Positions 6,477 to 52,709 are shown, numbered from the stretch's first letter. The stretch: 64,000 nt of DNA from Chloroflexota bacterium (GCA_043754535.1 JAYUUN010000093.1:19590-83589); one strand, 5' to 3'. Notes: generated by a model not told the origin, from the sequence alone. Numbers and translations are program-made.

Positions 6477-6550
6477 CACGCAGCACTCCTTTCGGGCAGG
6501 ATGCAACTATTATAACGGATCAGCCGCCAACAGGTTGCAGGTCAGCCGTT

Positions 6551-17893: not shown

Positions 17894-18961
17894 CTAAGCC
17901 TCACGCTCCGTCTGCTTCTCCGCGTAGATGGTGAGCGTCGCACCCTGGCGCAGGGCAGCGGCCAGTAGGGTTGCTGGTATGCTGACCACGCCTAGCAGGC
18001 CACCGAGCAGGATGGTAGCGGCCACCTGGGGCGCAAGGTTGCCAGCCCCCTCGTCGGCCCCGATCACCTTTGCGGTACGCCCACGCAGGAGATTGTAGAG
18101 CAGATTAGGGCGTAGGCCGAGGCGGTTGAGGGTCGATTGCACAAAGCTGAAGCTATCAAACTCCGGGGCGAAGAACTGCATCCTTCGTACCCGCAGGCCC
18201 GTGCGCTTGAGGGCGCGTCGCAGCGAGTGGGGGGTGAAGTGGTTGAGGTGGCGCGGCACATCCAGGTGGAACCACTTGTCGCCGCTGACCCGCGCTTCGA
18301 GGCTGGCGAAGTTCGGCACACCGATCAGGAAGATACCGCCAGGGCGCAGCAGTCGGTTGACCTCGCGCATGGTGGCGGCGGGGTCGATCACGTGTTCCAG
18401 CACGTGCCACATTACTACCGCGTCAAAGTGGCCGCTAGGGAAGTGCTGATCGGCAAGGTCGCCAACCTGCACTGGCAGGCCCAGCACCTCGCGGGGGTAG
18501 CTAGCTGATCCCTCGCTCAACTCCGTTCCCACAACATCCCAGCCCAGCTTCTGCAATTGGGCGAGCAAGAGACCACGCCCGCAGCCGACATCTAGCACCC
18601 GCCCTGGCTGGCCGCCGTTCATCAGCGTCAACTGGCGCGCGCGGTAGCGATAGAGGGCATCTTGCAGCCGCTCGATCACGCTGGGGAAGCGTTTGTCGCG
18701 GTGGGTGCCGTAGTAGCCAGCCGGGTAGTAGGCGGCCAGTTCTTTCGGCGCAGGGGTGGGCTGAGTCTGCGCCCAGCCATGCTCCGCATTGACCACGATC
18801 TCGAACTGCTCGTGAGTGATGTAGTCGGTGGCAGCGAACAGCCGCCGCGGGCTGGGGGTCTGCGGCTGGCTGGCCTCTTGCCTGGCACCGCTGCTCTCTG
18901 GGCTAGCCGCATCCGCTTCACTTAGGTTCATCGTTGCTTCCTCTGGTATGCTACTGATCAT
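17894..18961 (-). CDS. class I SAM-dependent methyltransferase (Methyltransf_11/23-like)
   Basis: Motif I is VLDVGCGRGLL and the acidic loop is DAVVMWHVLEHV. Its start codon shares one nucleotide with the stop of the upstream GT2 gene (TAATG). It is a paralog of the methyltransferase at 39740..40525. Confidence 0.8.
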   Translation of the reverse strand: MISSIPEEATMNLSEADAASPESSGARQEASQPQTPSPRRLFAATDYITHEQFEIVVNAEHGWAQTQPTPAPKELAAYYPAGYYGTHRDKRFPSVIERLQDALYRYRARQLTLMNGGQPGRVLDVGCGRGLLLAQLQKLGWDVVGTELSEGSASYPREVLGLPVQVGDLADQHFPSGHFDAVVMWHVLEHVIDPAATMREVNRLLRPGGIFLIGVPNFASLEARVSGDKWFHLDVPRHLNHFTPHSLRRALKRTGLRVRRMQFFAPEFDSFSFVQSTLNRLGLRPNLLYNLLRGRTAKVIGADEGAGNLAPQVAATILLGGLLGVVSIPATLLAAALRQGATLTIYAEKQTEREA

Positions 18962-19839
18962 TATTGGCTGATGGCGGCGGTATCGCGCCCCTCCACCTTG
19001 TTCAAGTCATCACCAGGGGGGGTGGCGGTGCCACCGGGGGTAAAGAGGCCCACACTATGATAGCGACTGACGATCTGTGAGAGCTTCTTGCTGAAGATCG
19101 GGTAGCGCATCAGGTGCAGCCGCTTGTGCAGCAGAAACTTACGCATCACGTCCAGGGTTGCCAGACCGTAAACTACGCTGCGGCGGAAGTTGACCGAGGA
19201 GGCTTCCTTGAAGTAGCGGGTCGGCACTGCGATTTCGGCGATACGGAAGTCGAAGGCGCGGGCCTGGGCGATCACCTCACTATCAAACACAAAGTCGTCG
19301 GAGTTGAGCAGGAAGGGGATCGTCTGCAACATCTGGCGAGTGTAGGCGCGGAAGCCGGTGTGCGCCTCGGAGAGACTAGTACCCATCACCAGGTTCTCGG
19401 TAGTGGTTAGGAAGCGATTGGAGATGTACTTCCAAATTGGCATTCCCCCGGCCAGAGCCTCGCCACTGAGCAGGCGCGAACCCAGCACCATGTCGGCGCG
19501 CCCCTCCAGCAGCGGCTGGATCATCTGCGGCACCAGGTCGGCGGCGTACTGGTTGTCAGGATGCAGCATCACTATGATGTCTGCCCCATCACGCAGAGCC
19601 TCGAAGTAGCAGGTCTTCTGGTTGCCGCCGTAGCCCCGATTCTGGATGTGGGTGATCACCTTGAGGCTGAGGCGGCGGGCGATTTCTACCGTCTCGTCGC
19701 TACTTACATCGTCCACCAGGATGATCTCGTCCACCACATCGGGGGGGATGTCGGCGACAGTGCGCTCCAACGTCTTCTCTGCGTTGTAAGCGGGCATCAC
19801 GACGACGACTTTGAGCTTGTTGCTGTTCATGGGCTGCAA
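18961..19839 (-). CDS. glycosyltransferase family 2, Dpm1/GtrB-like polyprenyl-phosphate sugar synthase candidate
   Basis: VVVVMPAYNAEKTLERTV...IILVDDVSSDET (DxD context) ...RGYGGNQKTCYFEA. Confidence 0.85.
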   Translation of the reverse strand: MQPMNSNKLKVVVVMPAYNAEKTLERTVADIPPDVVDEIILVDDVSSDETVEIARRLSLKVITHIQNRGYGGNQKTCYFEALRDGADIIVMLHPDNQYAADLVPQMIQPLLEGRADMVLGSRLLSGEALAGGMPIWKYISNRFLTTTENLVMGTSLSEAHTGFRAYTRQMLQTIPFLLNSDDFVFDSEVIAQARAFDFRIAEIAVPTRYFKEASSVNFRRSVVYGLATLDVMRKFLLHKRLHLMRYPIFSKKLSQIVSRYHSVGLFTPGGTATPPGDDLNKVEGRDTAAISQ

Positions 19840-19868: not shown

Positions 19869-22679
19869 CTATTGTGGAGGGAAGACCTGGACGCGGCGGC
19901 TGTCCGACTCCAGGGTATAAACCTTGCCGCCTGGATCGGTAGCCACGTCGACCAGGCCCTGGAACTGCCCGGCCCCGCCACCAGGCAGGCCGAGGATGCG
20001 GGCGTTACCATTGTCGGTATTGATCGCTATCAGTCTGTTGCGCTCTGAACTGGTGACGTAGAGGATGTTGCCGTGGGCGGCTAGGTGTAGGCTGGTCTCC
20101 TGCTCGAAGCCGAGCAGGGGCCACTCGCGCTGAAAATTGCCCGCCCTGTCGAACTGAGCGATCCGCCGCTTGAGGTCGCTGACGTAGATTTGGCCGTTGC
20201 TACCAACCGCGCAATCTATCGGCTGGTAGAGTTGCTTTGGCACCGTGCGTTCCAGGTTATCGTTGCCGAACTGAGCGATCAACTTGCCAGTGTTGTCCAA
20301 CTTGATCACCCGATTGCCGCCGGTGTCGGCCAGGTAGATGTTACCTGTTGGGTCAGCGCAGAGGCCACGTGAGCCGTAACTCTGGGCGGCGTTGTTGAGG
20401 TTGAGGTTGCCCAGCAGCTTGCCGTCTGGGTCGTAGACAGCCATGCCACCGTTGGTGTTGAGGGCGATCAGGTGGCCCTGGGTAAAGAGCAGCGACACCA
20501 GCCGTCCGCGCTCGCTCTCACTCAACTCGGCGAACAGCCGCCAGTGGGCTGCTGGCTTGCCGTCAACGTTGATGCGCGTCACAGTGAAGTTCTCGCGGTC
20601 AGCAGTGTAGGCGTTACCCTGATCGTCGGCGGCAATCGCCAGCGGGATCGGGATCGCGTAGTCACCTTGAGGGACGGTGGTGGTCAGCGGCACAAACTGC
20701 GCGGGCGGCACCTCGCTGATCTGGGCGTAGGCATCCTTCAGGCCGAAGGTGTAGCTGTAGAACAGGTAGCTGCCGATCAGCAGCCCTAGCCCAGCCAGCA
20801 GGCTGATCAGCGAGTGGCGCAGCCCCCAGCGTGGTGGGATTGGGATGGTCGCAGGCAGCACGTAGGTCGCTGGTTCAGCCTCCACCACCGCTGCCCCCGC
20901 TGCCCCTGCTGTTTCGCCCAGGCTGGCTGCTACCCCCGGCTGAACCATCGGCACTAGCTGGGTGGCGGCTGGCACATCAGGCAGGCTCCCAGCACTAGCC
21001 ACCCTACTGGAAGCGAGTTGCGGACGGTAGCTGCGTTGCGCCCACCAGTAGAGTAGCAACCCCAGTAGCAGCACCGCCGCAATCGAGGTGAGGGCAGGAA
21101 CGCTCTCCTGCACGGCATTGCGGGCCGAGTAACCCTGACTGAGGAAACCCGCCTTGCTGCGGGCGAACACAAAATCGGGCAGCAGGCCGTTGCTGGGGAT
21201 CGTCTCGATCCACTGCTGTAGCCCTGGGTTGGGGATGCGCAGCAGTAGGCTCTTAAACAGGTCGAAGCCGTTGAGGGCGAAGCTAAACGAATCCTGGGGG
21301 TTGAAAATGAAGGCGGCGGTTTGTACCAGGCTGACTGCCAGCAAGCCAGCATAGGTCAGCTTGTAGATCAGCGAGGGGAGTAGAGTGCTAATGCGGGCGA
21401 AGCCGAGGGCGAAGGGTAGGGCGAACAGCGGCAGGATAGCAATGAAATAGCGGGCTGGTGGAGCCCAGATGCCCCACCAGTACTTGAAATTGGCGAGCAG
21501 GCCGAGGTAGGGAATGGCTACCGCCAGGATCACGATCAGGTCTAGCCGCCACCGCTTCTCCAGGCCCATGATGATTAGCCCTACCCCAGCAAGCAGGAAG
21601 ACCGGGGCGGTGGTGAGGAAGCCGAAACGCTGGTCGATGAACAGGCCGAGGCCAGAGAGGATGGTATCGGTCGCATCATTGCGTTCTAGATAGCCCGCCT
21701 TGATCGTGAACTCGTGAAAGAGAGTGTAGCTCCAACCGAAGATGCCCAGGGCAGAGACGAGCAGCACCAGCGGCAGGGTAGCATAGTGGCGCAACCAGGT
21801 AGCTAGCTTTGGCTTGCCACGCACGCTCATGTAGAAGTAGAATAGGGTGAGGATGCCAGCAAGCGGAATGTAGCGATAGTGTAGCCAGGGCAGTGAAGCA
21901 ATGCTGAGGGCGACCAGTGCAGTCTGCACCCCGGTGTTTTGCCAGAGGCGGATGCGACGAAAGGCGTAGATCACCAGCAGGGCGGCGGGCAGTTCGGTGA
22001 AGATCAGGTAGATGAAGGGGAAGATGGGCAGGGTAAGCATGAAGGTAGCAACAGTGAGGATAGCGATCCATCGCTTGTTGACCGTTTCGCGCACCAGCAG
22101 GTAGATGTTGGCGGCCAGCAGTGCGCCGAGCAGGTTGAGGAAGAAGACTACCGCCAGCCGCCCACCCAGGGCATAGGCAGGGGCGATCAGGATGCTAAGG
22201 CCAAGGCCATGCCAGGTGTAAGCCTCGTTCTGGCTACCATCGGCAGGCAGCGGCGTGGCAGGGTCGGTGCTGATGCAACGGCGACTGAGCGGCTCAATCT
22301 GCTCCCATTGCACTGGCAGTGGGTAGGTCATGTTCGGCCAGCCCTGGTAGCCCTGCGGACGGGCCACACCTTGCTGCCAGTAGGAGGGAGGATAGAAGCC
22401 TTGCTCGTCGCGCTGGCGGAAGTTATTGCACTCGTTGAAATCACCATCCTTGAGCAGGCTGATCGTAGTCATCAGGTAGGTTGGCTCGTCGCCAGAAACC
22501 GGGTCGAGGATGGTAGTGAGGCGGGGGGTGAGAGCGGCAAAGAGGGCAAGGGCGATTAGAAAGACGATAGCCATCTCCACGAAGCTGGGGCTGGCACTCG
22601 TCGCGGTGGGGTGGGAGCGCGCAGCAGGTGGGCTGGGAGCGGCCATGATGGTTATGCTGCTCTCTTGCGAAACACTCAT
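19869..22679 (-). CDS. GT-C (PMT/ArnT-like) membrane glycosyltransferase with a C-terminal NHL-repeat beta-propeller
   Basis: 936 aa. The 'DE' motif follows TM1 (DPVSGDEPTY). There are about 12 TM helices, and the C-terminal NHL repeats include GNIYLADTGGNRVIKLD, GQIYVSDLKRRIAQFD and GKVYTLESDSRRVQVF. Confidence 0.8.
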   Translation of the reverse strand: MSVSQESSITIMAAPSPPAARSHPTATSASPSFVEMAIVFLIALALFAALTPRLTTILDPVSGDEPTYLMTTISLLKDGDFNECNNFRQRDEQGFYPPSYWQQGVARPQGYQGWPNMTYPLPVQWEQIEPLSRRCISTDPATPLPADGSQNEAYTWHGLGLSILIAPAYALGGRLAVVFFLNLLGALLAANIYLLVRETVNKRWIAILTVATFMLTLPIFPFIYLIFTELPAALLVIYAFRRIRLWQNTGVQTALVALSIASLPWLHYRYIPLAGILTLFYFYMSVRGKPKLATWLRHYATLPLVLLVSALGIFGWSYTLFHEFTIKAGYLERNDATDTILSGLGLFIDQRFGFLTTAPVFLLAGVGLIIMGLEKRWRLDLIVILAVAIPYLGLLANFKYWWGIWAPPARYFIAILPLFALPFALGFARISTLLPSLIYKLTYAGLLAVSLVQTAAFIFNPQDSFSFALNGFDLFKSLLLRIPNPGLQQWIETIPSNGLLPDFVFARSKAGFLSQGYSARNAVQESVPALTSIAAVLLLGLLLYWWAQRSYRPQLASSRVASAGSLPDVPAATQLVPMVQPGVAASLGETAGAAGAAVVEAEPATYVLPATIPIPPRWGLRHSLISLLAGLGLLIGSYLFYSYTFGLKDAYAQISEVPPAQFVPLTTTVPQGDYAIPIPLAIAADDQGNAYTADRENFTVTRINVDGKPAAHWRLFAELSESERGRLVSLLFTQGHLIALNTNGGMAVYDPDGKLLGNLNLNNAAQSYGSRGLCADPTGNIYLADTGGNRVIKLDNTGKLIAQFGNDNLERTVPKQLYQPIDCAVGSNGQIYVSDLKRRIAQFDRAGNFQREWPLLGFEQETSLHLAAHGNILYVTSSERNRLIAINTDNGNARILGLPGGGAGQFQGLVDVATDPGGKVYTLESDSRRVQVFPPQ

Positions 22680-24463: not shown

Positions 24464-24467
24464 TGGT

Positions 24468-25080: not shown

Positions 25081-25089
25081 GTGCTTGCC

Positions 25090-27254: not shown

Positions 27255-27348
27255 AACATACCTGCCTTGCAAAGGGGCGAGTAGCCACCCACCCCACGTA
27301 GAAGTTGCGTTTGACAGAGGGTACTGCCAAGCTCTGGTGGCTGCCCAG

Positions 27349-29244: not shown

Positions 29245-29786
29245 TGCTCTGTCTCCTTCGCAAGCGGGACGGTTGCCCAAAACCGCCGCGCTCACCTGCC
29301 TTGACTGTTGGGGACGGCCCCGCTGAACGGTATAATAATTATACGCCAGCTTGCCGACCGGGGTTGCACAACACTGCCTACCAACAATGCCACGAAGTTA
29401 AAGATCAGGTTAGAATTGCCTTGACCAGGTACAGAAAGAGGACACTGCCGCGCCACTGAGCGGCTCTTGCGAACCGTCGGTTGGCGACACTGCCCTCCTT
29501 ACCAAACTACTATACAGCGATCTTGCGGGCGCATACGCTTTGCCCTTCTAGCTGCCACTGCTGTGTTTCAAGGTTAAGATCATCTGGCTCTTTTACCCAT
29601 TCTTTGGCAAGGGGGCAGCTTAGGGACTGCCTACGTTACTCTTATCTTACCATACGCTGCAAATCTTGACAATAGCGCATTGGTACCGCCAGCTAGCAGC
29701 CAACTGATGACAATATGCAGGGAACGTGCCAGACGCAAAAGCCGCCCCGATGTTGCAGGGCGGCTGCGATGGGCCAAAAGCCGCAC

Positions 29787-30557: not shown

Positions 30558-30727
30558 TCGTAGTTACGACCTTTCTGCAAGCTGCGTCTATTATAGCAGG
30601 ATCAGCATCTTGATGCAACGATCATGCCACCGCTTGCAGATCGTCAAGCGTAAATCCAACCTGGGCCGAGCAGAGTATTACTGGCAGCAAAGCAAAACCG
30701 CCGAAGCGGTTAGACTTGGCGGTGAAG

Positions 30728-30804
30728 TGGTAGCGCATAGGGGATTCGAACCCCTGGTCTCATCCTTGAGAGGGATGTGTCCTAGGCCGCTAGACGAATG
30801 CGCC
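30728..30804 (-). tRNA. tRNA-Glu (anticodon CUC)
   Basis: I folded the 77-nt cloverleaf by hand. The acceptor is GGCGCAT/ATGCGCT, then A, then CCA. The D-arm is GTCTAGCGGCCTAGGAC. The anticodon stem is CATCC/GGATG with loop CTCTCAA (anticodon CTC). The T-arm is AGGGG-TTCGAAT-CCCCT. Confidence 0.75.
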
Positions 30805-31095
30805 ATAACGTGCTGTATTATACCCGCTGAGTTGGCCGCTTGTCAAGCCTTAGCACAGCCACCCTACCAGTACCTTACCGCTGCTACTAGAGCAGTACAG
30901 CCTTCTTGCAGCAGGCGAGCGTATATTGTACAATACGGCCAAAGCGTAGTGAGCGCAGCCTTGCCACGCCCGCAATTGCAAACAGGTTTGCCGATGCCCA
31001 CAACTCGGCGCAGAATGGCATAGAGTTGGCCCAACAAGAGCGCAGGCCAGCGGATAGTAATTTGTAGATAGCAATGTGCGATCCAGGGAGAAAAG

Positions 31096-34000
31096 ATGAA
31101 CACACAAGGTGATAAGCAACATGGTGCAGAGCAAGTAGCAGAGGCCACCCCCCAACGTAGCTTTGGCACGGTGCGTACCCGCCATAGTGGCGCAGGCAGC
31201 AGCACCCAGGTAGAGAGCGTAGAGTTGGCGAAGGATGATGCCAGCCTCATCCGCCGCCGCGTGCGCGTAGCTCGTGCTAAGGACGATCTGCTGTTGGACG
31301 GTGGCCCGGTGCCACAGGGCAGCAGCGTCGCACTGGTCCAGCCAGTCAGTGGGCAGTCCTGGTTGACGGTGGAGAACTGTCTCTACCTTCTTTTCCTGAT
31401 CCTGACCTTGTTTAGCCGCTTTTGGGATTTGGGCCGCATGGCTTTGCACCATGACGAGAGCCTACACGCTACCTACAGTTGGTACTTCTTCAAGGGCAAC
31501 GGCTACACCCACGATCCGATGATGCACGGCCCCTTCCAGTTCCACCTCTGGGGGCTGTTCCAGTATATGTTTGGTAGCAGCGAGGCCGCGGTGCGCTCTG
31601 TTTCGGCCACTCTCGCTATCTTCGTGGTCATGTCGCCCTTCTTTCTACGCCGCTATATTGGGCGGCTGCCAGCATTGGCGACGACCTTCCTCTTTCTTGT
31701 CTCCCCTGGCTTCCTATACTTTGGCCGCTTTGCCCGCGAGGATGCCTTCCTGATGTTCGCCGAGGCTCTGCTGCTAGTCGGCTTGATCGGCTACATCGCC
31801 AGCCGCAAGACTCCCTACTTCTACACCTTCATCGTCGCCCTCAGCCTGTTGTTCTCGATTAAGGCGACCGCTTACATCACCACCCTGATTTTCATCATCG
31901 TGCTGGTCGGGCTATTTGCCTGGCAGTTCAGCAAGCGGTTGTTCTTCGCGGGTGCAGCCTACCTGGGCTTCGCTGCTGTGGTCTTCAAGTGGATGCAAGG
32001 GCAGACCTTCCTCAACGTCGCAACTGGCAAGGAGGAGTTCAAGTACGCCCTGCCCCCGCTCCCTTCTGGCTCGAACCCGACCATTCAGCTAATCCTCGGC
32101 TACTTCGGCAGCCTCTTTAGCTCCCCCCTTGCCCTGGTCCAGTTTGGGCTGTTCGGCCTGTTCCTGGTAGTCATGGGTGGCCTCGTCTACCAGAAGCGAC
32201 GCGCCTACTTCGGCGACCCCAACAACGCCTTCCTCAAGCGGATCGGCTTTAGCGTGGCAGCCATCTTCGGGGGCGCACTGGTCGGCGTAGTAGTCCTCGG
32301 CAACATCATGAAAGCCTTCACCCCGTTGCAGATCGCTGGGGGCGAAGTGTTCAACTACGTGATTGGCGGGGTGGTCGGCCTGTTCTTCGGCATCTGGCTG
32401 GCCCATTTCCTCTCGCGGCGAGCGAGCGTAGCAGGTGAGGAGCAGCAGAGCATCCTGCTGCAATACCCCACTGGCAGCATCCCCAACGTAGTCGGTTCGA
32501 TCACCAGCCGCCTGCACCTGCTCTACACTGGGCTGGCCGCCTTCTTCCTGATCTGGTCGTTCCTGTTCACCAGTATGTACGAAAACATCCCACAGGGTCT
32601 CGGCACCGGCAGCTTTGGGCTGATTGGCTACTGGCTATCACAGCACGATATACGGCGCGGCAACCAACCCTGGTTCTACTACCTGCTCCTGGTGCCACTC
32701 TACGAAATGCTGGCCGTCTTCTTCACCGTCGTGTCTATTTTCTGGGCCAGCTACGTTGGGATCAAGGGCCGCCGCGACCGCTTCATCAAGGCAGGGCTGA
32801 TCCTTTGGGTCGCCGCCTTGCCAGTTCTTTTCTTCGCCGTCGCCCAGGGTTCGAGCAATACGGGCGGCAAACTGCTGCTTGGTCTCGCTGCTGCACTGCT
32901 GGTGGCGGGTTTCGGCCTCTTTGCTTACACCTGGTATAGCGAATGGCGCGCCAATCGGGGTGATCGTGCCAGCATCGTGCCACAACACGTCCCCTTCAGC
33001 GACACCCGCTCGTTCCTGGTACTGCTCTCCTTCGTCTGGTTCCTCGGCACCTTCGCCATCTACAGTTGGGCTGGAGAGAAGATGCCCTGGCTGTTGGTTC
33101 ACATTGCCCAGCCCGCGATCATCGCCGGTGGCAGCTTCCTCGGTGGCCTGTTCCTTAGCATCTACGCCTGGCACAAGGTGCAGGCCGCCCAGCAAGTGCC
33201 GCTGGCAGAACCCATAGCTACTCCCACAGATGCACTCGGTGGCCGCCGTCCCAAGGCTGCCCTCGGTTTCGCAGCGGCTATGCCAAAAGCGATCAGCCGC
33301 CCACGCCAGTTGATGGCAGACGATGATGAGGAGAGCCGCGTCCTCTACGCCTGGCTAGCCCCTGGCTCCTACCGCCCTCTGGTCGCCTACGTCTTCCTCT
33401 TTACCATCCTGGTCTTCGGCTTCGGGGTGACAATGGCCGCCCGCAGCTACAGCCTGACGGTGGATCGCCAGACCCCAGAGTGGGGCGGGACCATTGTCTT
33501 CCCAGCCCTGATTTTGGTGCTGACTGTTGCCTACGCAATCTGGCGCGGGGTCAAGCCAGCCCTGCAAGCCTTGCTGATGGGTATCTTCCTGGTGCTGACC
33601 ATCTACTCGGTTCGCAGCGCAGTCGCCCTCAGCTTCCAGAACAACGATGTGGCTCCAAAGGAGATGGCAGTTTACACCCAGTCTTCGCCCGACGTAACCC
33701 ACGTGGTCAATCAGATCGAGCAGTACAGCCGCTATGCTTTTGGCGACAACTCGGTTCGCATCATCTACGACAGCGACACTTCCTGGCCGATGACCTGGTA
33801 TATGCGGAAGTTCCCCAACGCCCGCTTCATGCCCAGTGGCCCCAGCAGCCTGGCCGACGCGAAAGCTAGCAACGCCAAGCTACCAGAGTTCATTATCGTC
33901 GGTTCCTCCTACGCCGACCCTGCGCTGGGCAAGGGGGCCGACCTCTCGATAGACGCGAACTACATCAAGCAGAAGTACGTGCTGCGCTGGTGGTTCGACG

Positions 34001-34233
34001 AGTCGTTCTACCGCGTGTTCGCCCCCGACAATGCCACCCCAACCCAGACGATCAACGCGATGTGGGGGACGGTCTCGACCCTCAAAGACCCGGAGTACCA
34101 AAGCAAGCTGTGGCGTTACCTGCTCTACCGCGACGCGCCGATTGTCGGCAGCGGTGGCAGCTTCGACTTCCAGCTACTCGTCCGCCGCGACATCTACGCC
34201 AGCTACAACGAGCTAGCCAGAGGCAACAACTAA
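31096..34233 (+). CDS. large GT-C-fold membrane protein of the Chloroflexi/Archaea 'YYY'-type family
   Basis: 1045 aa with AGGGAG upstream. It has an HDE motif after TM1 (ALHHDESLHATY), more than 14 TM helices and the aromatic motif NQPWFYYLLLVPLYEMLAVF. It has no C-terminal propeller. Confidence 0.75.
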   Translation: MNTQGDKQHGAEQVAEATPQRSFGTVRTRHSGAGSSTQVESVELAKDDASLIRRRVRVARAKDDLLLDGGPVPQGSSVALVQPVSGQSWLTVENCLYLLFLILTLFSRFWDLGRMALHHDESLHATYSWYFFKGNGYTHDPMMHGPFQFHLWGLFQYMFGSSEAAVRSVSATLAIFVVMSPFFLRRYIGRLPALATTFLFLVSPGFLYFGRFAREDAFLMFAEALLLVGLIGYIASRKTPYFYTFIVALSLLFSIKATAYITTLIFIIVLVGLFAWQFSKRLFFAGAAYLGFAAVVFKWMQGQTFLNVATGKEEFKYALPPLPSGSNPTIQLILGYFGSLFSSPLALVQFGLFGLFLVVMGGLVYQKRRAYFGDPNNAFLKRIGFSVAAIFGGALVGVVVLGNIMKAFTPLQIAGGEVFNYVIGGVVGLFFGIWLAHFLSRRASVAGEEQQSILLQYPTGSIPNVVGSITSRLHLLYTGLAAFFLIWSFLFTSMYENIPQGLGTGSFGLIGYWLSQHDIRRGNQPWFYYLLLVPLYEMLAVFFTVVSIFWASYVGIKGRRDRFIKAGLILWVAALPVLFFAVAQGSSNTGGKLLLGLAAALLVAGFGLFAYTWYSEWRANRGDRASIVPQHVPFSDTRSFLVLLSFVWFLGTFAIYSWAGEKMPWLLVHIAQPAIIAGGSFLGGLFLSIYAWHKVQAAQQVPLAEPIATPTDALGGRRPKAALGFAAAMPKAISRPRQLMADDDEESRVLYAWLAPGSYRPLVAYVFLFTILVFGFGVTMAARSYSLTVDRQTPEWGGTIVFPALILVLTVAYAIWRGVKPALQALLMGIFLVLTIYSVRSAVALSFQNNDVAPKEMAVYTQSSPDVTHVVNQIEQYSRYAFGDNSVRIIYDSDTSWPMTWYMRKFPNARFMPSGPSSLADAKASNAKLPEFIIVGSSYADPALGKGADLSIDANYIKQKYVLRWWFDESFYRVFAPDNATPTQTINAMWGTVSTLKDPEYQSKLWRYLLYRDAPIVGSGGSFDFQLLVRRDIYASYNELARGNN

Positions 34234-34346
34234 ACCAGACCATGCCAGCCTGCCTCCTCCACAGTGGGGAGGCTGGCAGCAGCAAAGCAACAGTGAGTGC
34301 GTAACGCAGATATATTTCACCAAACAGGAAGCAAGGAGAGCTAGTT

Positions 34347-37300
34347 TTGGACATTACCAGCCCCCGGCCCGGTGGCGGCCAGCCGCACGATGATGGGCAG
34401 CAGCCTACTGCCGAGCCTGCGCTGCTCGACCGTTACCTCAGTCTCGCCCGCGTCAATTGGGAGGTCGTCTACTTTGTCGCGCTGCTGGTAGTGGTGGTAC
34501 TCACCCGCCTGCTAGCCCTTGACAACCGTGCGCCGCACCACGACGAAGGCATCCACGCTGTCTACAGCTACGGCGCATTCACGGGCCATGCACCTTACAC
34601 CTACGACCCAGTCTATCATGGGCCGTTCCTCTACCTGATGACCCAGATTGCGTTCCTTTTCTTCGGTGCATCTGACTACACAATGCGCCTGGCTCCAGCC
34701 ATCTTCGGCATCATCCTGGTGCTGCTGGTCTGGCAGTTCCGCATCTTCATCGGTAAGTGGGGAGCTTTGGCTGCCGCAACGCTGGTCACCTTCAGCCCCA
34801 GCATCAGCTACTACTCGCGCTCGCTGCGCCACGATATCTTCGCTACCGTCGCCACTGCCGTACTGATCCTGGCGATCTTCAACTTCATCCGCACCCATCA
34901 GAGCCGCTACATCTACTGGGCAGCAATCGGGGCGGCGGTGGGCATCAGCAGCCATGAGATGATGTGGCTCAACGGCTTCATCTTCGTCAGCTTCTTCGCC
35001 TTCGCTGCGATCTTCGAGATGGTTTACAACAGCCGCAAGCCAGTGGAGCAACGCCCGCTATTGCTCGCTGGGCAGGCATTGCTGCGCCAACCACGCATGA
35101 TCGCCGGGGCGGTAATCACCTTCGTTACCCTGATCGTCCTGTTCTTCAGCAACCTGCTGACCAACTTCGATAGCCTGGGCAAGTTCTTCAGCGGCCTAAC
35201 TTACTGGAATGGGCAGCAGGTGGAAGCGCGAGGCGGCCAGCCCTGGTACTACTACTTCATGCTCCTGTTCATCTACGAAATCCTGCCGCTCACATTTGGC
35301 ATTGCTGGTGGGGTCTACCTGCTCATTCGCCAATTGCGGCACCAGGTTGAGCCAGACGACAGCTACCCCAATCTGACCGACCCCGACGTGGCAACCGGCC
35401 CCAACCTGCCCACCCCGCGCTCGGTAATCGAACTGGTACTACCTGCCCTCGGCTACTGGAGCTTGAGCGCACTGATCGTCTACACGCTCGCGGGCGAGAA
35501 GATGCCCTGGCTGACCATGCAGATTGCCTTGCCGCTCTGCCTGATGGCGGGTATGGCGATTGGTCGTCTGCTCAAGGGGATGGATTGGCGCGGCTTCTTC
35601 AACGCGGGCGGCCTGTGGCTGGGCCTCGTCTTCATCGCTCTTGCCTTCGCCTTCATTGCCTTTGGCGACGCGTTGCGGGTGGTAGTGCCAGTAGACGCGA
35701 GCGGCACCGTGACCGATCAGGCGGCGCAGGCAGCCAAGCTGTGGCGATCACTACTCACTGCTGCCTTCATTGTTGCCCTCGTCGCCCTGATCCTCAGCTT
35801 CAGCAGCCGCCTGGGGCTGAAGCAGAGCGTGCTGGCCTTCAGCTACGCCCTCTGCGGGGTGCTATTGGTCTATACCGTCCACTCGACGATCAACCTCAAC
35901 TTCTACAACACCGCTACACCTGTGGAGATGTTGATCTACACCCAGTCCTCGCCCAGTACCGGCCAAGTAGCCGGGCAGATCAGCCGCCTCAGCCGCGACG
36001 TGACCGCCTTCACCAAGCGCGGCCCAGACGATCCGCTTGGTGGCCGCAGCTTGGACATCGCTATCGACAACTCGGTGGAATGGCCCTTCGACTGGTACTT
36101 CCGCGACCAGCGTGGCCTCTCCTACTTCAACGAGCGTTCGCCGCTGGCCCGCAATACTAGCGTGATCCTATCCCGCGTGGAGACGAATGGGGCAGATGTG
36201 GCTGGTGACAAGATGGTGGCCGACCTCAAAACCCGCCTCGGCACGGAGTACGTGGTGCGCCGCTACCCCCTGCGCTGGTGGTTCCCAGAGGAACTCTACC
36301 GCGACGCTAACTACAAGCCCCGCGATCTCGGCAGTGTAGCGGGCGAGTTGTTCAAGGGTGAGAACCTGCCCAAGTTCGCCAAATACTTCTTCTACCGCGA
36401 CCCCCAGTTCCAACTGGGTAGCACTGACTTCTACCTGTTTGTCAAGAACGACTACGCCCAGATGATCGGCTTCGTGCCAGAGGGTACTGTAGCCAGTTCA
36501 CCCGTAACCAGCGACACAGGGGGTGTCAAGCCGCCGACCGGCAAGACCTACGGGATGCTCGATCTGGGGGCGGAGGGTAGCGACAATGGCGCATTCAGCC
36601 AGCCGCGCCAGATCGCTCTTGCCCCCGATGGCACCTACTACGTGTTGGATACCAACAATGGCCGGGTTGAACACTTCACCGCCGACTACAAGTACATCGG
36701 CCAGTTTGGCAAGAAGGGGACGGCCAGTGGTGAGCCGAAGGATGCCGACCCTGGTACCGCCGATGGCGACACCCTCGGTGTGCTGGCGAACGGTGGCGGC
36801 GGCCCGAATGGGATGGCGGTGGACAAGGATGGCAACATTTACATCGCCGACACCTGGTTCCATCGCGTGCAGAAGTTCGACAAAGACGGCAAGTTCGTCC
36901 TCAGCTTTGGTGGCTTCGCGGCCACTGGCGGCAAGACGAGCGACAACAACAACGCGCCTGGCAAGTTCTGGGGGCCACGTGGCGTGGCGACCGACGCGCA
37001 GGGCAGCGTCTACGTGACCGACACTGGCAACAAGCGCGTGCAAATCTTCGACGGCACGGGCAAGTTCCTTCGCACTATCGGCGGGGTAGAGACGATTGAC
37101 GAACCAATCGGGGTTGCAGTTGACCAGGCAGGTAACGTCTACGTTGGCAGCACCCGCACACAGAGCATCGTCAAGTTCGACGCGGCTGGCAACAAGCAGG
37201 CCGCCTGGCGGCTGCCCGACAACGGCTGGCAGCCGGGTGCCTACATGGAGCCGCAGATCGCCCTCGACGCGGCGGGCAACATCTACACTACCGATCCCAG

Positions 37301-37472
37301 CAACGCCCAGGTAGTCAAGTTCCGGCCCGACGGCACAGTGGCAAGCAAGAAGGCGAAGGAGGCAGGGGTCAGCCTCAAGACTCCAACTGGCATCGTCCTA
37401 GACAAGGCTGGCAACATCTACGTGGTGGATACGACACAGCAGGGGGTGATCCGCTTCACCGCTATGCAGTAA
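34347..37472 (+). CDS. 'YYY'-type GT-C membrane protein with a C-terminal NHL-repeat beta-propeller
   Basis: 1041 aa with a TTG start and AAGGAG 8 nt upstream. The motifs are HHDEGIHAVY and GQPWYYYFMLLFIYEILP. The NHL repeats are GNIYIADTWFHRVQKFD, GSVYVTDTGNKRVQIFD and GNIYVVDTTQQGVIRF. Confidence 0.75.
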   Translation: MDITSPRPGGGQPHDDGQQPTAEPALLDRYLSLARVNWEVVYFVALLVVVVLTRLLALDNRAPHHDEGIHAVYSYGAFTGHAPYTYDPVYHGPFLYLMTQIAFLFFGASDYTMRLAPAIFGIILVLLVWQFRIFIGKWGALAAATLVTFSPSISYYSRSLRHDIFATVATAVLILAIFNFIRTHQSRYIYWAAIGAAVGISSHEMMWLNGFIFVSFFAFAAIFEMVYNSRKPVEQRPLLLAGQALLRQPRMIAGAVITFVTLIVLFFSNLLTNFDSLGKFFSGLTYWNGQQVEARGGQPWYYYFMLLFIYEILPLTFGIAGGVYLLIRQLRHQVEPDDSYPNLTDPDVATGPNLPTPRSVIELVLPALGYWSLSALIVYTLAGEKMPWLTMQIALPLCLMAGMAIGRLLKGMDWRGFFNAGGLWLGLVFIALAFAFIAFGDALRVVVPVDASGTVTDQAAQAAKLWRSLLTAAFIVALVALILSFSSRLGLKQSVLAFSYALCGVLLVYTVHSTINLNFYNTATPVEMLIYTQSSPSTGQVAGQISRLSRDVTAFTKRGPDDPLGGRSLDIAIDNSVEWPFDWYFRDQRGLSYFNERSPLARNTSVILSRVETNGADVAGDKMVADLKTRLGTEYVVRRYPLRWWFPEELYRDANYKPRDLGSVAGELFKGENLPKFAKYFFYRDPQFQLGSTDFYLFVKNDYAQMIGFVPEGTVASSPVTSDTGGVKPPTGKTYGMLDLGAEGSDNGAFSQPRQIALAPDGTYYVLDTNNGRVEHFTADYKYIGQFGKKGTASGEPKDADPGTADGDTLGVLANGGGGPNGMAVDKDGNIYIADTWFHRVQKFDKDGKFVLSFGGFAATGGKTSDNNNAPGKFWGPRGVATDAQGSVYVTDTGNKRVQIFDGTGKFLRTIGGVETIDEPIGVAVDQAGNVYVGSTRTQSIVKFDAAGNKQAAWRLPDNGWQPGAYMEPQIALDAAGNIYTTDPSNAQVVKFRPDGTVASKKAKEAGVSLKTPTGIVLDKAGNIYVVDTTQQGVIRFTAMQ

Positions 37473-37490
37473 GCAGCAAGCCTGAGCGCG

Positions 37491-37526
37491 CCCCCCTCCT
37501 GCTTGCAGGAGGGGGGTGTTCTTTTA
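37491..37526 (+). terminator. strong intrinsic terminator (11-bp GC stem, U-tract)
   Basis: cccccctcctg-cttg-caggagggggg followed by tgttctttta. Confidence 0.7.
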
Positions 37527-37532
37527 CCCAAA

Positions 37533-37541
37533 TGGTATAAT
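37533..37541 (+). promoter_or_regulatory. extended -10 element TGGTATAAT, 6 nt before the ATG (leaderless-type start)
   Basis: TGGTATAATcagcacATG. The shared AATCAGC sequence after the -10 box also appears at the pxpC promoter. Confidence 0.45.
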
Positions 37542-37547
37542 CAGCAC

Positions 37548-39743
37548 ATGAGAGATCGTCGCTTGCTCCTGCTACTCGTCCCGCTACTGCTCCTACTCCT
37601 GCTCTGGTGGGCAGGCACTGGCAGCACAGTACTGCGCGTAGCCAGCGGGTCAGCGGGCAGCAGTGCGCGCATCCTTGACCAGAAGGTTGGCCTCGCTGCC
37701 AGCCTCGACCTGGGCCAGCCGCCCGTCCTCTATCAGGCTGACGCACTGCTACACGGCAGTGGCTGGCTCGGCTGGCTGGCACGGGCGCAGGCACTACGCC
37801 CCAGCCTCGCCTGGCAAGATCGCGGGGCCGGGCTGGCTGAGGTGAGCGGGGTCGATCTCGCAGGCGGGGGGGTAGCGACTGGGCTGGTGTACGCTGGACT
37901 GGACGGTCGCCAGTACTTGCTGCTGCTGCAACCGGATGATCGCAGTGTCGCCTGGTGGTCACTGGTCAATGGTAAGCCTGCGGAGCAGCTAGCCAGCGCA
38001 ACCTACACCCCTAACTTTCTGCTGGCCCTACAAACGCTGCTGGGCGAAGTGGCCCTGGTCGGCCTCTACGCCTGCCTGCTGCTGCTGCTAGTGTTGCTAG
38101 TCGGTGGGCTGCTGCGGTTGGCTGGGGCGGGGAGTTGGTCGCTAGCGGCTAAACCACAATGGCAGCAGTGGGCGTGGCTTGTGCCATTGCTCATCTTCGC
38201 CGTCGCCTTGCTAGCTACGGGCTATGTCGCATACAACGTACTGGAGGCGGTGCCACACGTGCAAGACGGTGCAGCCTACCTGTTCCAGAGCCGCATCTTC
38301 GCTGAGGGCCGCCTGCGCGTTCCTGACCCCGGCCTGCCACTGCACGCTGCCCTCGACCACGCCTACGTCCTGTTCTACGACGGCGCGTGGTTCAGCAAGT
38401 ACCCGCCCGGCTACCCACTGGTACTGGCGGTCGGCACCCTGCTGGGCCAACCCGCGATTGTCGATCCGTTCTGCACTGCCGCCGCCCTGGTCTTCGTCTA
38501 CCTCAGCGGCAAGAGCTTGGTGGGGGTAAGGGTGGGGCTGCTGGCAACGGGGTTGGGCCTGACCTCACCCTTTCTACTCACCATGTCTGGCTCCTTCCTC
38601 TCCCACAGCCTGGGCTTGCTCTGTACTGCTGCCTTCCTCTACTTCTTCATCCAGGCAACGCACCTGGGTGCAGGCACGGTGATTGACCAGCCAACAACCC
38701 TGCAAGGTGGGCGGAGGGCCTGGCCCAGGCTGCAACCAGCCCTCTACCCACTACTCGCTGGCCTCAGCATAGGCTGGCTGGCGATCACCCGCGAACTGAC
38801 AGCGGTTGGTGTCGCTGCGCCGTTCGTCGTCTACGCCGTCGCCGACCTCTTGCGCCAGCGCGATGGACTGACCCTACGCCGCTACCTGTTGATGGTGGCG
38901 GGCGCGTTGCCACCAATCATCTTCCTCCTGCTTGACAACCGGGTATTGACCGGCGGCTTCCTAACCTTTCCCCACGACTTGCAGGGCGACTTCGACAAGC
39001 TCGGCTTCGGCCCTGGCATCGGCGGCACCGCTGGGGGCCACACCCCCGCCCTCGGCCTGGTCAACGCCGCCACCTACCTGCGGACGCTAGCCGAGGTACT
39101 TTTTGGCTGGCCCGCTCCCTTCACTTTCAGCTTTGCGCTGCTGGGTCTCTGCCTGCCCCCACTGGCAAGCAGAGCAAGTAGGTCGCAATGCAGCCTGGTG
39201 CGACCCGAAATCCTGCTGTTCGCCCCGATCCTCAGCCTGGCAAGTGGCTACTACTTCTGGTGGGCAGCAGCGCGGGTGTTCGGCCCCCGCTACTGGTACG
39301 AGATGCTACCCTTCCTCTGCATCCTCACCGCCCTCGGCGTATGCAAGCTGGCCGCCCTGTTCCCGGCGCAGAGGGGGAGGGGGACAGCCTGGGCAGCAGG
39401 GCTGCTGCTGGCCCTGCTGATCAGCTACAACCTGAGTGGCTATTTGCCTACTTACCTGGAGGGCTACCGGGGCTACAATGACCTAAGCGGGCTGGCACGC
39501 GATACAGTGCAAAGGGCAGGGCTGCGCCGCGCAATAGTCTTCGTCACCCTCGACCGTGATGCGCCGCGCAAGGATTACAGCAAGGTGTTTTGGCTCAACG
39601 ACCCGCTGCTGAACAAGGGGGGCGACGCAGTGATCTACCTGCGCGACCTGGGTGACGAGCAGAACCAGGCCGCCGCCCGCGCCCTCCCCGGCTGGCCCAG
39701 CTATCGGCTGGACGGCGACAGGTTGACCGCAATCACTCGCTAG
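37548..39743 (+). CDS. GT-C (PMT_2/ArnT-like) membrane glycosyltransferase
   Basis: 731 aa. I moved the start to the ATG at 37548 because the track start at 37503 lies upstream of the -10 element and overlaps the terminator. The motifs are YYFWW...RYWYEMLPFL and an Asp-containing first loop (HVQDGAAY). Confidence 0.7.
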   Translation: MRDRRLLLLLVPLLLLLLLWWAGTGSTVLRVASGSAGSSARILDQKVGLAASLDLGQPPVLYQADALLHGSGWLGWLARAQALRPSLAWQDRGAGLAEVSGVDLAGGGVATGLVYAGLDGRQYLLLLQPDDRSVAWWSLVNGKPAEQLASATYTPNFLLALQTLLGEVALVGLYACLLLLLVLLVGGLLRLAGAGSWSLAAKPQWQQWAWLVPLLIFAVALLATGYVAYNVLEAVPHVQDGAAYLFQSRIFAEGRLRVPDPGLPLHAALDHAYVLFYDGAWFSKYPPGYPLVLAVGTLLGQPAIVDPFCTAAALVFVYLSGKSLVGVRVGLLATGLGLTSPFLLTMSGSFLSHSLGLLCTAAFLYFFIQATHLGAGTVIDQPTTLQGGRRAWPRLQPALYPLLAGLSIGWLAITRELTAVGVAAPFVVYAVADLLRQRDGLTLRRYLLMVAGALPPIIFLLLDNRVLTGGFLTFPHDLQGDFDKLGFGPGIGGTAGGHTPALGLVNAATYLRTLAEVLFGWPAPFTFSFALLGLCLPPLASRASRSQCSLVRPEILLFAPILSLASGYYFWWAAARVFGPRYWYEMLPFLCILTALGVCKLAALFPAQRGRGTAWAAGLLLALLISYNLSGYLPTYLEGYRGYNDLSGLARDTVQRAGLRRAIVFVTLDRDAPRKDYSKVFWLNDPLLNKGGDAVIYLRDLGDEQNQAAARALPGWPSYRLDGDRLTAITR

Positions 39744-40525
39744 TCCTTCTTGCCGATAGCTACGATGGAGAGGCCCAGCGGCAGGTTGAGCTTCTCCTCC
39801 AGGCGGAAGATAGGCATCAAGAAGTTAAAGAGGCGCAACTGACCGCTAGGCAGCAAGGGACGGCGCAAGATGCGCGCGTTCAGCCACCAACCAAGGATAC
39901 CAGGGAGGTTCATCCGCCACGAGGTTTCGATGCGGAAACCTGCCCGCTCCATCAAAGCAACCACCTCGCTGTACTTGTAGCGACGATAGTGGTCAAGGTA
40001 GTAGTCCAACGTGCCATAGAGCCAGCGGCCAGCGGGGACGAGCAGTAGCAGGCGGCCACCCGGCTCCAGCACCTCATACATATGGCGCAGGGCTAGTTCG
40101 TCGTCGGGGATGTGTTCCAGGACGTTGACGCAGATCACCGTATCGAAGCGCAAGGGCTTGAGGCTGGCGACGAGTTCTGGGTTGAGGATGTCTCCAACAG
40201 CGGGTAGCACGTGGTCGGTATGCAAATAGCGGGTTTGCAGCGACTCGATGGCCTCTGGCACCGGGTCAACCGCCACCACCTTCTCGCGGTCTACAAAGTA
40301 GTAGGTGAAATTACCGATGCCGCAGCCCACTTCAAGGATGCGCTGCCCTGCATATGGGCGCAGCCGCTGCCAAATGAAATCGTTGTAGCGGCTGACCGAG
40401 GCCATACGCCGCAGCGTCTCTGAGCCAACCTGAAGATCGGCAACCGACTTCCCTTCGCGCAGTCGCCGCGCCCGCAGTTCCTCCGCTCGCTCCTGTTCGC
40501 GCAGATAAGCACGCAAGGCCCGCAT
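39740..40525 (-). CDS. class I SAM-dependent methyltransferase, paralog of 17894..18961
   Basis: Motif I is ILEVGCGIGNF, with ...VICVNVLEHIPDD. I set the start at the internal Met at 40525 because the track N-terminus would overlap the GT2 gene. Confidence 0.7.
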   Translation of the reverse strand: MRALRAYLREQERAEELRARRLREGKSVADLQVGSETLRRMASVSRYNDFIWQRLRPYAGQRILEVGCGIGNFTYYFVDREKVVAVDPVPEAIESLQTRYLHTDHVLPAVGDILNPELVASLKPLRFDTVICVNVLEHIPDDELALRHMYEVLEPGGRLLLLVPAGRWLYGTLDYYLDHYRRYKYSEVVALMERAGFRIETSWRMNLPGILGWWLNARILRRPLLPSGQLRLFNFLMPIFRLEEKLNLPLGLSIVAIGKKD

Positions 40526-40563: not shown

Positions 40564-41277
40564 TCAACCGACGAAGCGGTACTTGACCAACGCCCACAAA
40601 GCCTGCGGGCCGTCGCGCCAGATGTTCAGCTTCTTGCCCTCCTGAATATCGCGGCCATAGTAGGAGATCGGCACCTCGTAGATGCGGTAGCCACGCTTGA
40701 GCAGCTTGGCAGTGATCTCCGGCTCGAAGTTGAAGCGTTCGCACTGAATGTCGATCCCCTGGATCACCTCGCGGCGGAATGCCTTGTAGCCAGTCTCCAT
40801 GTCGGTGAGGATCGTATTGTAGAGGATGTTGGTGATCAGGTTCAACACCTTGTTGCCCATATAGTTGGCGAAGGCGAAGGCGCGGTGGGTGCCGAGGAAG
40901 CGCGAACCATAGACTACCTGGGCATTGCCGCGCATAATCGGGGCGATCAACTGGGGGTAGTCGGCGGGGTCGTACTCAAGGTCGGCATCCTGCACGATCA
41001 CGATCTCGTTGCTCGCGTACTTGAAGCCGGTACGCAGAGCCGCCCCTTTGCCGCGATTGCGGGCCTGGAAGAAGATACGCACGGGGGTCGCGTCGTCAAG
41101 GGGGAGATTACGCAGGATGTCGCGGGTGCCGTCGGTCGAACAATCATCTACGATGATGATTTCCTTCTCGAACGGGGTATCTTTGACCCGCTGGATAATC
41201 TGCTCGATAGTATCTCTCTCGTTGTAGCAGGGGATGACGATAGATAGACGCATCAGCGGCTTCGCTCCTCTTTGCAA
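40564..41277 (-). CDS. glycosyltransferase family 2, Dpm1-like polyprenyl-phosphate sugar synthase candidate
   Basis: LSIVIPCYNERDTIEQII...IIIVDDCSTDGT...VQDADLEYDP are the GT2 DxD/ED motifs. Confidence 0.85.
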   Translation of the reverse strand: MQRGAKPLMRLSIVIPCYNERDTIEQIIQRVKDTPFEKEIIIVDDCSTDGTRDILRNLPLDDATPVRIFFQARNRGKGAALRTGFKYASNEIVIVQDADLEYDPADYPQLIAPIMRGNAQVVYGSRFLGTHRAFAFANYMGNKVLNLITNILYNTILTDMETGYKAFRREVIQGIDIQCERFNFEPEITAKLLKRGYRIYEVPISYYGRDIQEGKKLNIWRDGPQALWALVKYRFVG

Positions 41278-41359
41278 TCATGAAAATAGCAGCGTTGTTG
41301 GGCTGCAATCGCAACAATGCGGCAATGATATACAATCTGGCTACTGGCTGTCAAGCCTG

Positions 41360-52652: not shown

Positions 52653-52663
52653 TGTGGTATAAT
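52653..52663 (+). promoter_or_regulatory. extended -10 element TGTGGTATAAT
   Basis: It lies about 45 nt upstream of the fnr-like TTG start. Confidence 0.45.
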
Positions 52664-52709
52664 AAAGGCACGATTGTGAAGGCTTTAACAGACCAGAGGA
52701 GGAAGCGGG

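Follow-up and report, generated by a model that had tools for sequence, protein, structure and literature searches.

In a 64,000-nucleotide stretch of DNA from a Chloroflexota bacterium (GCA_043754535.1, JAYUUN010000093.1:19590-83589; hereafter the window, with a G+C content of about 61%), we found a pair of genes of the TIGR03663 ('Agl23') family followed by a gene for a membrane protein of a different family. The three genes, P1 (31096-34233, 1045 amino acids), P2 (34347-37472, 1041 amino acids) and P3 (37548-39743, 731 amino acids from its ATG start), lie consecutively on the plus strand, and all three encode polytopic membrane proteins of the GT-C type. On the sequence evidence, P1 and P2 are true, diverged paralogs of the TIGR03663 family, and P3 is a member of a large, uncurated GT-C family that is captured by neither Pfam nor NCBIfam. 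The window holds typical members of a common gene family that has been annotated before, together with a GT-C neighbour of a different family, and its gene content suggests a typical cluster for glycosylation of the cell envelope and no novel type of system. With some reservation, we favour the view that P1, P2 and P3 transfer sugar from a polyprenyl-phosphate-sugar to an acceptor in the extracytoplasmic envelope. An initial annotation of the region, made from the sequence alone, had described three tandem GT-C paralogs; a listing of open reading frames (ORFs) returned the three consecutive plus-strand genes where it had placed them and, for P3 when read from its ATG, with the sizes it had given, and the peptide strings quoted there were all found in the translations.

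The family assignment of P1 and P2 is carried by the NCBIfam model TIGR03663, which has 435 positions and a curated cutoff of 126.25 bits. P2 reaches 265.5 bits and covers model positions 3-431 of 435, and P1 reaches 169.6 bits in three stretches. P3 has no match, and of two further large membrane proteins of the window, A1 remains below the cutoff (26.9 bits) and A2 has no match. The Pfam family PMT_2 (PF13231, gathering score 26.1 bits) is passed by P2 (44.2 bits) and A1 (36.5 bits), with P1 (20.9 bits) and P3 (17.0 bits) falling below; a precomputed PF13231 match exists in most P1 orthologues. PF02366 (PMT) or MIR domains were not found by Pfam in P1, P2 or P3, and PF02366 is present in the precomputed lists of some distant P2 relatives. 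The current NCBIfam name of TIGR03663 is 'flippase activity-associated protein Agl23', and relatives carry this name in public databases or appear as 'TIGR03663 family protein', 'glycosyltransferase family 39 protein' or 'predicted membrane-bound mannosyltransferase'. P1 and P2 share about 30% identity in four collinear BLAST blocks. The first of them (32% identity, E 1e-20) falls in the N-terminal catalytic region, the middle ones contain QPW[FY]YY..YE and GEKMPWL, and the fourth spans about 240 amino acids of the C-terminal region (E 1e-19).

Two sequence signatures characterize both proteins. The HHDE motif that the initial annotation had noticed after the first transmembrane (TM) segment of the first two proteins is present in both and conserved in their families: in P1 it occupies residues 118-121 (31447..31458, plus strand) in the first extracytoplasmic loop after TM1, and in P2 residues 64-67 (34536..34547, plus strand) just after TM1, a helix spanning residues 38-55 in the structural model. 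In the P1 family, 25 of 26 rows have H, H, D and E (as HHDESLH) and the remaining row is gapped; among 28 P2-family sequences, H65, D66, E67 and H70 are invariant. The second signature reads QPWFYYLLLVPLYEML in P1 (residues 524-539, 32665..32712, plus strand) and QPWYYYFMLLFIYEIL in P2 (residues 298-313, 35238..35285, plus strand). Around it, R521, G522, Q524, P525, W526, Y528, Y529, P534 and Y536 are invariant in the 26 P1-family sequences, and R295, G296, Q298, P299, Y310 and E311 in the P2 family, so that column counts give R-G-x-Q-P and the tyrosine of YE as invariant in both. The remaining positions vary slightly: all P2-family sequences and 24/26 P1-family rows have the glutamate of YE, the tryptophan of QPW and the [FY]YY tyrosines are invariant in the P1 family and present in 24/28 and 24-27/28 P2-family rows, respectively, and the proline before YE is kept in 26/26 and 27/28. 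Such invariant columns show the motif to be real and no artefact of TM helix composition. HHDE and RGxQPW[FY]YY..P.YE are, in these alignments, family signatures of TIGR03663 proteins. The AGEKMPWL signature is kept by P1 and P2 as well, and since the full signature is retained in both, neither paralog looks degenerate. The N-terminal hallmarks that we take TIGR03663 to have, namely the dipeptide DE, the tripeptide HGP and a set of conserved arginines, correspond to D120, E121, H144, G145, P146, R211 and R214 in P1 and to H65, D66, E67, H91, G92, P93, R158 and R161 in P2, all of them invariant or nearly so.

A soluble domain at the C-terminus is common to P1 and P2, and P2 additionally carries an NHL propeller. 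P2 consists of a GT-C membrane domain (residues ~26-553), a small alpha/beta soluble domain (residues ~571-707), a disordered linker and the propeller announced for one of the three proteins, a six-bladed NHL beta-propeller (residues 753-1037, 36603..37457, plus strand) with strong Pfam matches to its repeats, which we infer to be extracytoplasmic. P1 lacks a propeller; it begins with about 87 additional amino acids on the cytoplasmic side and ends in a soluble domain (residues ~850-1040). It also contains an insertion of about 225 amino acids (residues ~280-505) with extra TM segments, which is kept among P1 orthologues in the family alignment; P1 has about 19 hydrophobic segments versus 11 in P2.

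P3 is built differently, with an N-terminal TM helix, a beta-rich domain (residues 26-152), a GT-C core (residues ~204-640) and a small C-terminal alpha/beta domain. It has zero NCBIfam matches and, in Pfam, only the PMT_2 score below the gathering threshold given above; BLAST finds no similarity to P1 or P2 (E > 3), and W[FY]YY, QPW, HHDE and GEKMPWL are all missing from it. The short string YE[MI]L does occur in all three proteins. When the P2-family and P3-family profiles are compared, they match with 93% probability (E 2.4e-7), but the match is confined to 91 columns around TM3-TM5, which places the relationship of the two families at superfamily level. The motif GPRYWYEMLP of P3 (residues 579-588, 39282..39311, plus strand), near the end of the TM domain and not in its middle, belongs to a P3-family signature G-P-R-Y-W-Y-E-x-L-P, in which only G579 and R581 are invariant, the glutamate is found in 20/29 and the methionine in 3/29 members; in the P2-P3 profile alignment this region is not aligned with the P1/P2 motif. 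The motif proposed as common to the three proteins is therefore genuine in P1 and P2, whereas P3 has its own.

An exhaustive profile search for the P3 family, counted as cluster representatives at 50% identity, yielded 19,464 at E <= 1e-3, 8,792 at 1e-10 and 4,489 at 1e-30. The apparently tiny family of 40 matches seen otherwise was rejected as a word-index limit, given the thousands found exhaustively. Relatives of P3 are sparsely named ('GT39 family' or 'YncE'-type), and some are fused to beta-propellers, which suggests that the P3 family, like the TIGR03663 family, acquired propeller fusions. P3-type GT-C members include P0350 and P0426 (1060 amino acids), both annotated 'YncE beta-propeller', as well as P0364 and P0371, and some members have 1,050-1,200 amino acids. 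The P3 family is thus a large GT-C family without a curated model. The ORF lister began P3 itself at a TTG at 37503 (746 amino acids); the ATG at 37548 gives 731 amino acids. We rejected the TTG, which falls inside a hairpin at 37488-37519, in favour of the ATG, which is backed by an identical public protein (P0001) and independent gene calls.

The GT-C type predicted for all three proteins is consistent with structural models, in which the membrane domains of P2 and P3 resemble solved GT-C enzymes. The lack of GT-C structural similarity that would have refuted the initial annotation is thus not observed for P2 and P3. The top structural matches of both are transferases, and neither list of matches contains a flippase-type fold. 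In the models, D120/E121 of P1, D66/E67 of P2 and D240 of P3 immediately follow the helix that opens the GT-C core as its first TM segment. D240 (PHVQD motif, codon at 38265..38267, plus strand) begins the first helix of the ensuing loop, and an aspartate is found here in 29/29 family members. The acidic residues D120/E121 of P1, D66/E67 of P2 and D240 of P3 are invariant or occur in all ungapped rows of their own families. By topology, the HHDE of P1 is at the place of the GT-C catalytic acidic residue. Searches of PDB sequences with the single proteins P1, P2 (N-terminal 718 amino acids) and P3 found nothing at E <= 1; the full-length P2-family profile retrieved only NHL proteins, the profile of its TM part alone nothing meaningful, and the P3-family profile a designed binder without relation to it (E 0.095) besides STT3A matches that were not significant (E 0.4-0.7).

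Two enzymes encoded on the opposite strand adjoin P3. MT_B (39740..40525, minus strand), an S-adenosylmethionine (SAM)-dependent methyltransferase of 261 amino acids (Pfam Methyltransf_23/11/12/25; the public gene call also gives 261 amino acids), is convergent with P3, and the stop codons overlap by 4 bp. GT2_B (40564..41253, minus strand) is a soluble-type GT2 glycosyltransferase of 229 amino acids (Pfam Glycos_transf_2, 124.8 bits), whose top NCBIfam models are AglJ (148.7 bits), dolichyl-phosphate hexose transferase (83 bits), ArnC-type (72 bits) and PpgS (67.6 bits). Because these best matches are polyprenyl-phosphate glycosyltransferases, GT2_B may be the maker of the lipid-linked sugar donor. 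Immediately upstream of GT2_B we noted a Roadblock/LC7 (MglB-like) protein gene (41360-41791, minus strand), followed by an SDR gene (41841-42650), an order shared with an identical metagenome contig (L001).

A companion module at 12.2-22.7 kb comprises a GT4, A1, a methyltransferase, a GT2 and A2. A1 (13592..17824, plus strand, 1410 amino acids) combines a GT-C domain (PMT_2, 36.5 bits) with PA14 (Pfam, 32 bits) and a beta-propeller. On the minus strand follow the SAM-dependent methyltransferase MT_A (17894..18961, by Pfam), a second polyprenyl-phosphate-glycosyltransferase-like GT2, GT2_A (18961..19839; Pfam Glycos_transf_2), whose top NCBIfam matches AglJ, PpgS and dolichyl-phosphate hexose transferase are each below cutoff, and A2 (19869..22679), a polytopic membrane protein of 936 amino acids with a C-terminal NHL propeller (Pfam NHL, 57.8 bits). 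A2 is probably also a GT-C: its orthologues (n=4) have an invariant G-D-E-P after TM1, and in hhalign it matches the P3 family with 45% probability (E 2e-4) over 264 collinear columns, versus 7.6% for the P2 family. From the results for A1, A2 and the P3 family, at least three distinct GT-C lineages are present among the five proteins, and the earlier count of five paralogs within 26 kb was overstated, as A1 fails TIGR03663 and A2 has only a weak link to the P3 family.

The arrangement of these genes is old and widely distributed. In a genome scan with one genome per species, at least 599 pattern matches were obtained, and TIGR03663+NHL genes encoding a P2 relative occurred at at least 540 sites in species-representative genomes. 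All 80 of the 80 loci among the matches listed belong to Chloroflexota (Chloroflexia, Anaerolineae, Caldilineales, Thermoflexus, a Dehalococcoidales metagenome-assembled genome (MAG), Chloroflexus sp. and Ca. Oscillochloris fontis); the taxonomic restriction that had been suggested holds to this extent, with effectively Chloroflexota only among the bacterial genomes scanned. The locus of the window recurs in two JGI metagenomes, and the MAG 'Chloroflexia bacterium La1_metabat2.263' (L010) encodes a P2 with 96% protein identity, from which we assign the window to an uncultured member of the Chloroflexia. A tblastn result that placed P1 in 80/80 loci was rejected for cross-matches to the P2-like gene, and P1-like genes were counted as distinct N-terminal blocks per locus. 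Counted in this way, a P1-like gene followed by a P2-like gene is found in L003, L004, L005, L007, L010-L012, L019, L023, L028 (Chloroflexus sp.), L029 (Ca. Oscillochloris fontis), L043, L046, L060 and L062. Chloroflexia-type loci are characterized by a P2-like gene that carries NHL and is immediately preceded by a P1-like gene that lacks it; most Anaerolineae loci contain just one TIGR03663+NHL gene, in some cases accompanied by further GT-C genes. Since P1 and P2 share only about 30% identity and have separate orthologues across Chloroflexia, their duplication appears to be ancient.

More distant Chloroflexia have the two modules of the window as a single cluster. In L004 the order is P1-like, P2-like, MT_A-like, A2-like (TM part only), A1-like and GT2_A-like; L005 is similar up to the A1-like gene, which is followed by another PMT_2+PA14+NHL gene; and in L007 it is P1-like, P2-like, P3-like, A2-like, methyltransferase and A1-like, with all five large proteins encoded contiguously. 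In these three loci, A2 orthologues without NHL lie between the P2-like and A1-like genes. MT_A is 45-47% identical to the methyltransferase directly downstream of the P2-like genes in L004 and L005, GT2_A is 67% identical to the GT2 that ends the L004 cluster, and the P1-like gene of L003 is preceded by an A1-like gene whose end lies about 6 kb away. P2-like and P3-like genes are adjacent in L007 and also in L010. P3-like genes occur apart from the pair as well, in L006 with only a methyltransferase and a GT2, without P1 and P2, and in L008 alone. Seven Anaerolineae/Caldilineales loci (L015, L021, L025, L030, L031, L035 and L047) have one or two GT-C genes downstream of the TIGR03663+NHL gene, at distances of a few hundred bases to about 8 kb, which resemble the membrane domain of A1; these loci make multi-GT-C clusters a general Chloroflexota theme. 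In the window, SpoVR, DUF444, PrkA, a DNA methylase, an MBL-fold gene and a tRNA-Glu are located between the two modules.

P1 and P2 are probably a conserved co-transcribed pair, separated by 113 bp in which a consensus scan found no plus-strand terminator. Between the P2 stop and the P3 ATG lies an unusually strong, G+C-rich terminator-like hairpin (37488..37519, plus strand) with a 14-bp stem of 10 G-C pairs, a loop of 4 and the tail TCTTTTACCC. GT2_B has a promoter-like site at 41354..41325 (minus strand) that matches 11/12 positions. In our reading, the locus is divided into two functional units, P1 with P2, and P3 with the convergent GT2_B and MT_B, a boundary that the hairpin and the occurrence of the P3-like, methyltransferase and GT2 genes without the pair in L006 both support. 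Upstream of P1, no riboswitch or leader was found at family threshold with Rfam, whose sole match in the window is a tRNA. This tRNA-Glu(CTC) (30728-30804, minus strand) lies within the 538 bp that precede P1. Ahead of the tRNA gene is a promoter-like site that agrees with the sigma-70 consensus at 12/12 positions (TTGACA-18-TATAAT, 30846..30817), and behind it a terminator-like hairpin at 30711..30696.

What the GT-C proteins do may be considered in light of a scheme of three parts that is realized in ArnC/ArnT, GtrB/GtrC and Dpm1/PMT: a GT2 enzyme charges the lipid carrier, the product is flipped, and a GT-C enzyme transfers the sugar outside. Following this scheme, the GT2 enzymes of the window would load sugar onto polyprenyl phosphate at the cytoplasmic face, and the lipid-linked sugar, as the presumed donor, would reach the outer face. 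There the GT-C enzymes, if catalytically competent, would use the acidic residue of loop 1 to place the sugar onto an acceptor, for instance a protein of the envelope or a polysaccharide of the wall. This acceptor could be held by the soluble domain at the C-terminus and by the NHL propeller, in the manner of the MIR, TPR and periplasmic domains of PMT, TMTC, ArnT and PglB, and the methyltransferases may act on the sugar or on what is made from it. The GT-C fold, the loop-1 acidic residues, the large extracytoplasmic domains and the adjacent GT2 genes all fit with such a transfer. Several points weigh against it. The only experimental data on the family concern an archaeal homologue and describe a flippase, not a transferase (PMC11182771). 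The 'catalytic position' of D66 and D240 is an assignment from topology in the models, every GT2_A and GT2_B match is below its equivalog cutoff, and the acceptor is putative. Terminators and promoters were called from consensus scans only, and the start of the P3-like gene in L007 overlaps the stop of the P2-like gene by 4 bp, so that separate transcription of P3 is not universal and its transcriptional linkage varies between lineages.

The archaeal data come from Haloarcula hispanica, for whose Agl22/Agl23 pair Lu et al. 2020 (doi 10.1111/mmi.14577) is reportedly the primary paper. Chen et al. 2024, with reference to Lu et al., describe H. hispanica Agl23 as a putative flippase for hexose-P-dolichol; it suppresses the lethality and the glycosylation defect of a yeast rft1-delta mutant and bears no resemblance to Rft1 (PMC11182771). 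The purified protein translocates M5GN2-PP-dolichol in proteoliposomes, whereas Agl22 does not (PMC11182771). The claim that the family is functionally undescribed does not survive these genetic and in vitro results. P1 and P2, as bona fide TIGR03663 members, could hence be flippases or scramblases of polyprenyl-P-hexose or polyprenyl-PP-oligosaccharide, with P3, A1 and A2 as the users, or, as a special case, bifunctional GT-C proteins that both scramble and transfer. Three further GT-C-type proteins in the cluster would be at hand as transferases, and there is no Wzx/MurJ/GtrA-type gene among the genes annotated in both modules, where small flippase genes were not exhaustively searched for. 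We nevertheless consider this reading, the main rival, less likely than transfer, because the fold is a canonical GT-C fold with transferases as top structural matches, and because the invariant H-D-E of loop 1 and large conserved extracytoplasmic domains including a propeller would be expected in transferases that bind an acceptor and would not be needed for scrambling. The transferase and flippase readings are compatible and not mutually exclusive.

A wider and still less likely possibility, which we regard as speculative, is that P1-P2, P3, A2, A1, the two GT2s and the two methyltransferases form a dedicated multi-GT-C machine that builds a lineage-specific, possibly methylated envelope glycoconjugate at the outer face of the membrane, in which the TIGR03663 proteins act as scramblase-transferases and P1 and P2 as a heterodimer whose propeller selects the acceptor. 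If TIGR03663 proteins were such combined scramblase-transferases, the archaeal flippase data and the GT-C fold would be reconciled. That P1 and P2 are an obligate heteromer like Pmt1-Pmt2 or EmbA-EmbB, one partner supplying the propeller and the other the TM insertion, is plausible from their conserved pairing; adjacency of paralogs would be equally expected for enzymes that act independently in sequence, and we rate such a P1-P2 complex as improbable.

Finally, the proposal of three recent tandem TIGR03662 paralogs within a five-fold local expansion for sequential transfers, for which the adjacency and shared strand of the genes, their common GT-C fold, the YE[MI]L string in all three and the repeated P2-like/P3-like adjacency in L007 and L010 could be cited, is refuted as stated and retains hardly any probability, since TIGR03662 has no match at E <= 5, P3 lacks BLAST similarity to P1 and P2 as well as W[FY]YY and HHDE and is linked to P2 by a short profile match only, its family occurs apart from P1/P2 in L006 and L008, A1 and A2 do not pass TIGR03663, and the low identity and own orthologues of P1 and P2 point to an ancient duplication. 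Paralogy thus stands for P1 and P2 and falls for P3, a member of a separate family behind a hairpin, and in place of a local burst of duplication we see an old gene cluster conserved in related Chloroflexia. The same division was obtained with the models that had been suggested for a check: TIGR03663 matches P1 and P2 and not P3, and TIGR03662, the 'Chlor_Arch_YYY' family to which the proteins had been assigned, matches none of P1, P2, P3, A1 and A2 (retention of this model in NCBIfam release 20 is unverified) nor any other unannotated window ORF tested. DUF2298, which we take to be the Pfam counterpart of TIGR03662, was not found in P1, P2 or P3 with Pfam at E <= 0.01. TIGR03662 has a similar distribution in Chloroflexi and Archaea and often shares a genome with TIGR03663; P1 and P2 also have a motif rich in tyrosine, but QPW[FY]YY belongs to TIGR03663.

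Compared with known systems, P1 and P2 are closest to H. hispanica Agl23, a likeness that is given by the model score, with both proteins above the cutoff and P2 matching end to end. As with the Agl22/Agl23 pair, a GT2 gene resembling a polyprenyl-phosphate hexose synthase is found in the neighbourhood. P1 and P2 differ in being bacterial, in their size (about 1,000 amino acids versus a 435-position model), in forming a conserved paralog pair, and in carrying an extra conserved C-terminal alpha/beta domain, to which P2 adds the NHL propeller and P1 the insertion of about 225 amino acids with its additional TM segments. Towards Pmt1/2/4 (GT39), sequence identity is only 10-12%, without MIR and without a PF02366 match; the accessory domain is a C-terminal NHL or alpha/beta domain here and a loop-inserted MIR domain in PMT. 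Relative to PMT_2, P1 and P3 remain below the gathering score. ArnT (GT83) has other accessory domains, and the window offers neither other arn genes, nor a lipid A context, nor a family-level match to it. The extracellular NHL sensor domain of M. tuberculosis PknD is fused to a kinase, unlike the propeller of P2, which is fused to a GT-C.

Little is understood of Chloroflexota envelopes, and the phylum repeatedly shows clusters in which several GT-C enzymes are fused to propellers. In the literature library searched, there was no relevant paper on bacterial TIGR03663 members or Chloroflexi GT-C. Hundreds of bacterial proteins have been automatically named 'flippase activity-associated protein Agl23' after one archaeal study, yet the family has a canonical GT-C transferase fold, an invariant H-D-E in loop 1 and large extracytoplasmic domains of an acceptor-binding type. 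Should bacterial TIGR03663 proteins be transferases, as we favour, a widely propagated name would be corrected; should they be scramblases, a GT-C fold would be able to scramble a lipid-linked sugar, which would bear on the Rft1/flippase debate.

Some further features of the window deserve mention. A gene at 49971-52397 (minus strand) encodes 808 amino acids that combine PQQ/BamB-like beta-propeller repeats with three SLH (S-layer homology) domains. The product may be a surface protein anchored in the cell wall, and it is conceivable that it serves as acceptor or partner of the glycosylation cluster. A conserved stress-kinase trio on the minus strand, PrkA (27349-29295), DUF444/YeaH (26061-27272) and SpoVR/YcgB (22967-24463), has a DNA N6/N4 methylase gene (25090-26064, minus strand) inserted between DUF444 and SpoVR, and this block (22967-29295) splits the glycosylation modules that adjoin in related genomes. 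At 52584-54785 (minus strand), the first ~310 residues of a 733-amino-acid ORF make up an entire LysR-type regulator (HTH_1 and LysR_substrate); as its last ~420 residues have no family match, the ORF may be over-extended, fused or equipped with an uncharacterized C-terminal domain. Two ORFs of 568 and 330 amino acids (3577-5283 and 5514-6506, minus strand) have no Pfam or NCBIfam match, and an adjoining gene (7534-8754, plus strand, 406 amino acids) has a C-terminal DUF4230 in Pfam and no match in NCBIfam. A tyrosine recombinase/integrase gene (58758-59849, minus strand) adjoins relA/spoT (59936-62518).

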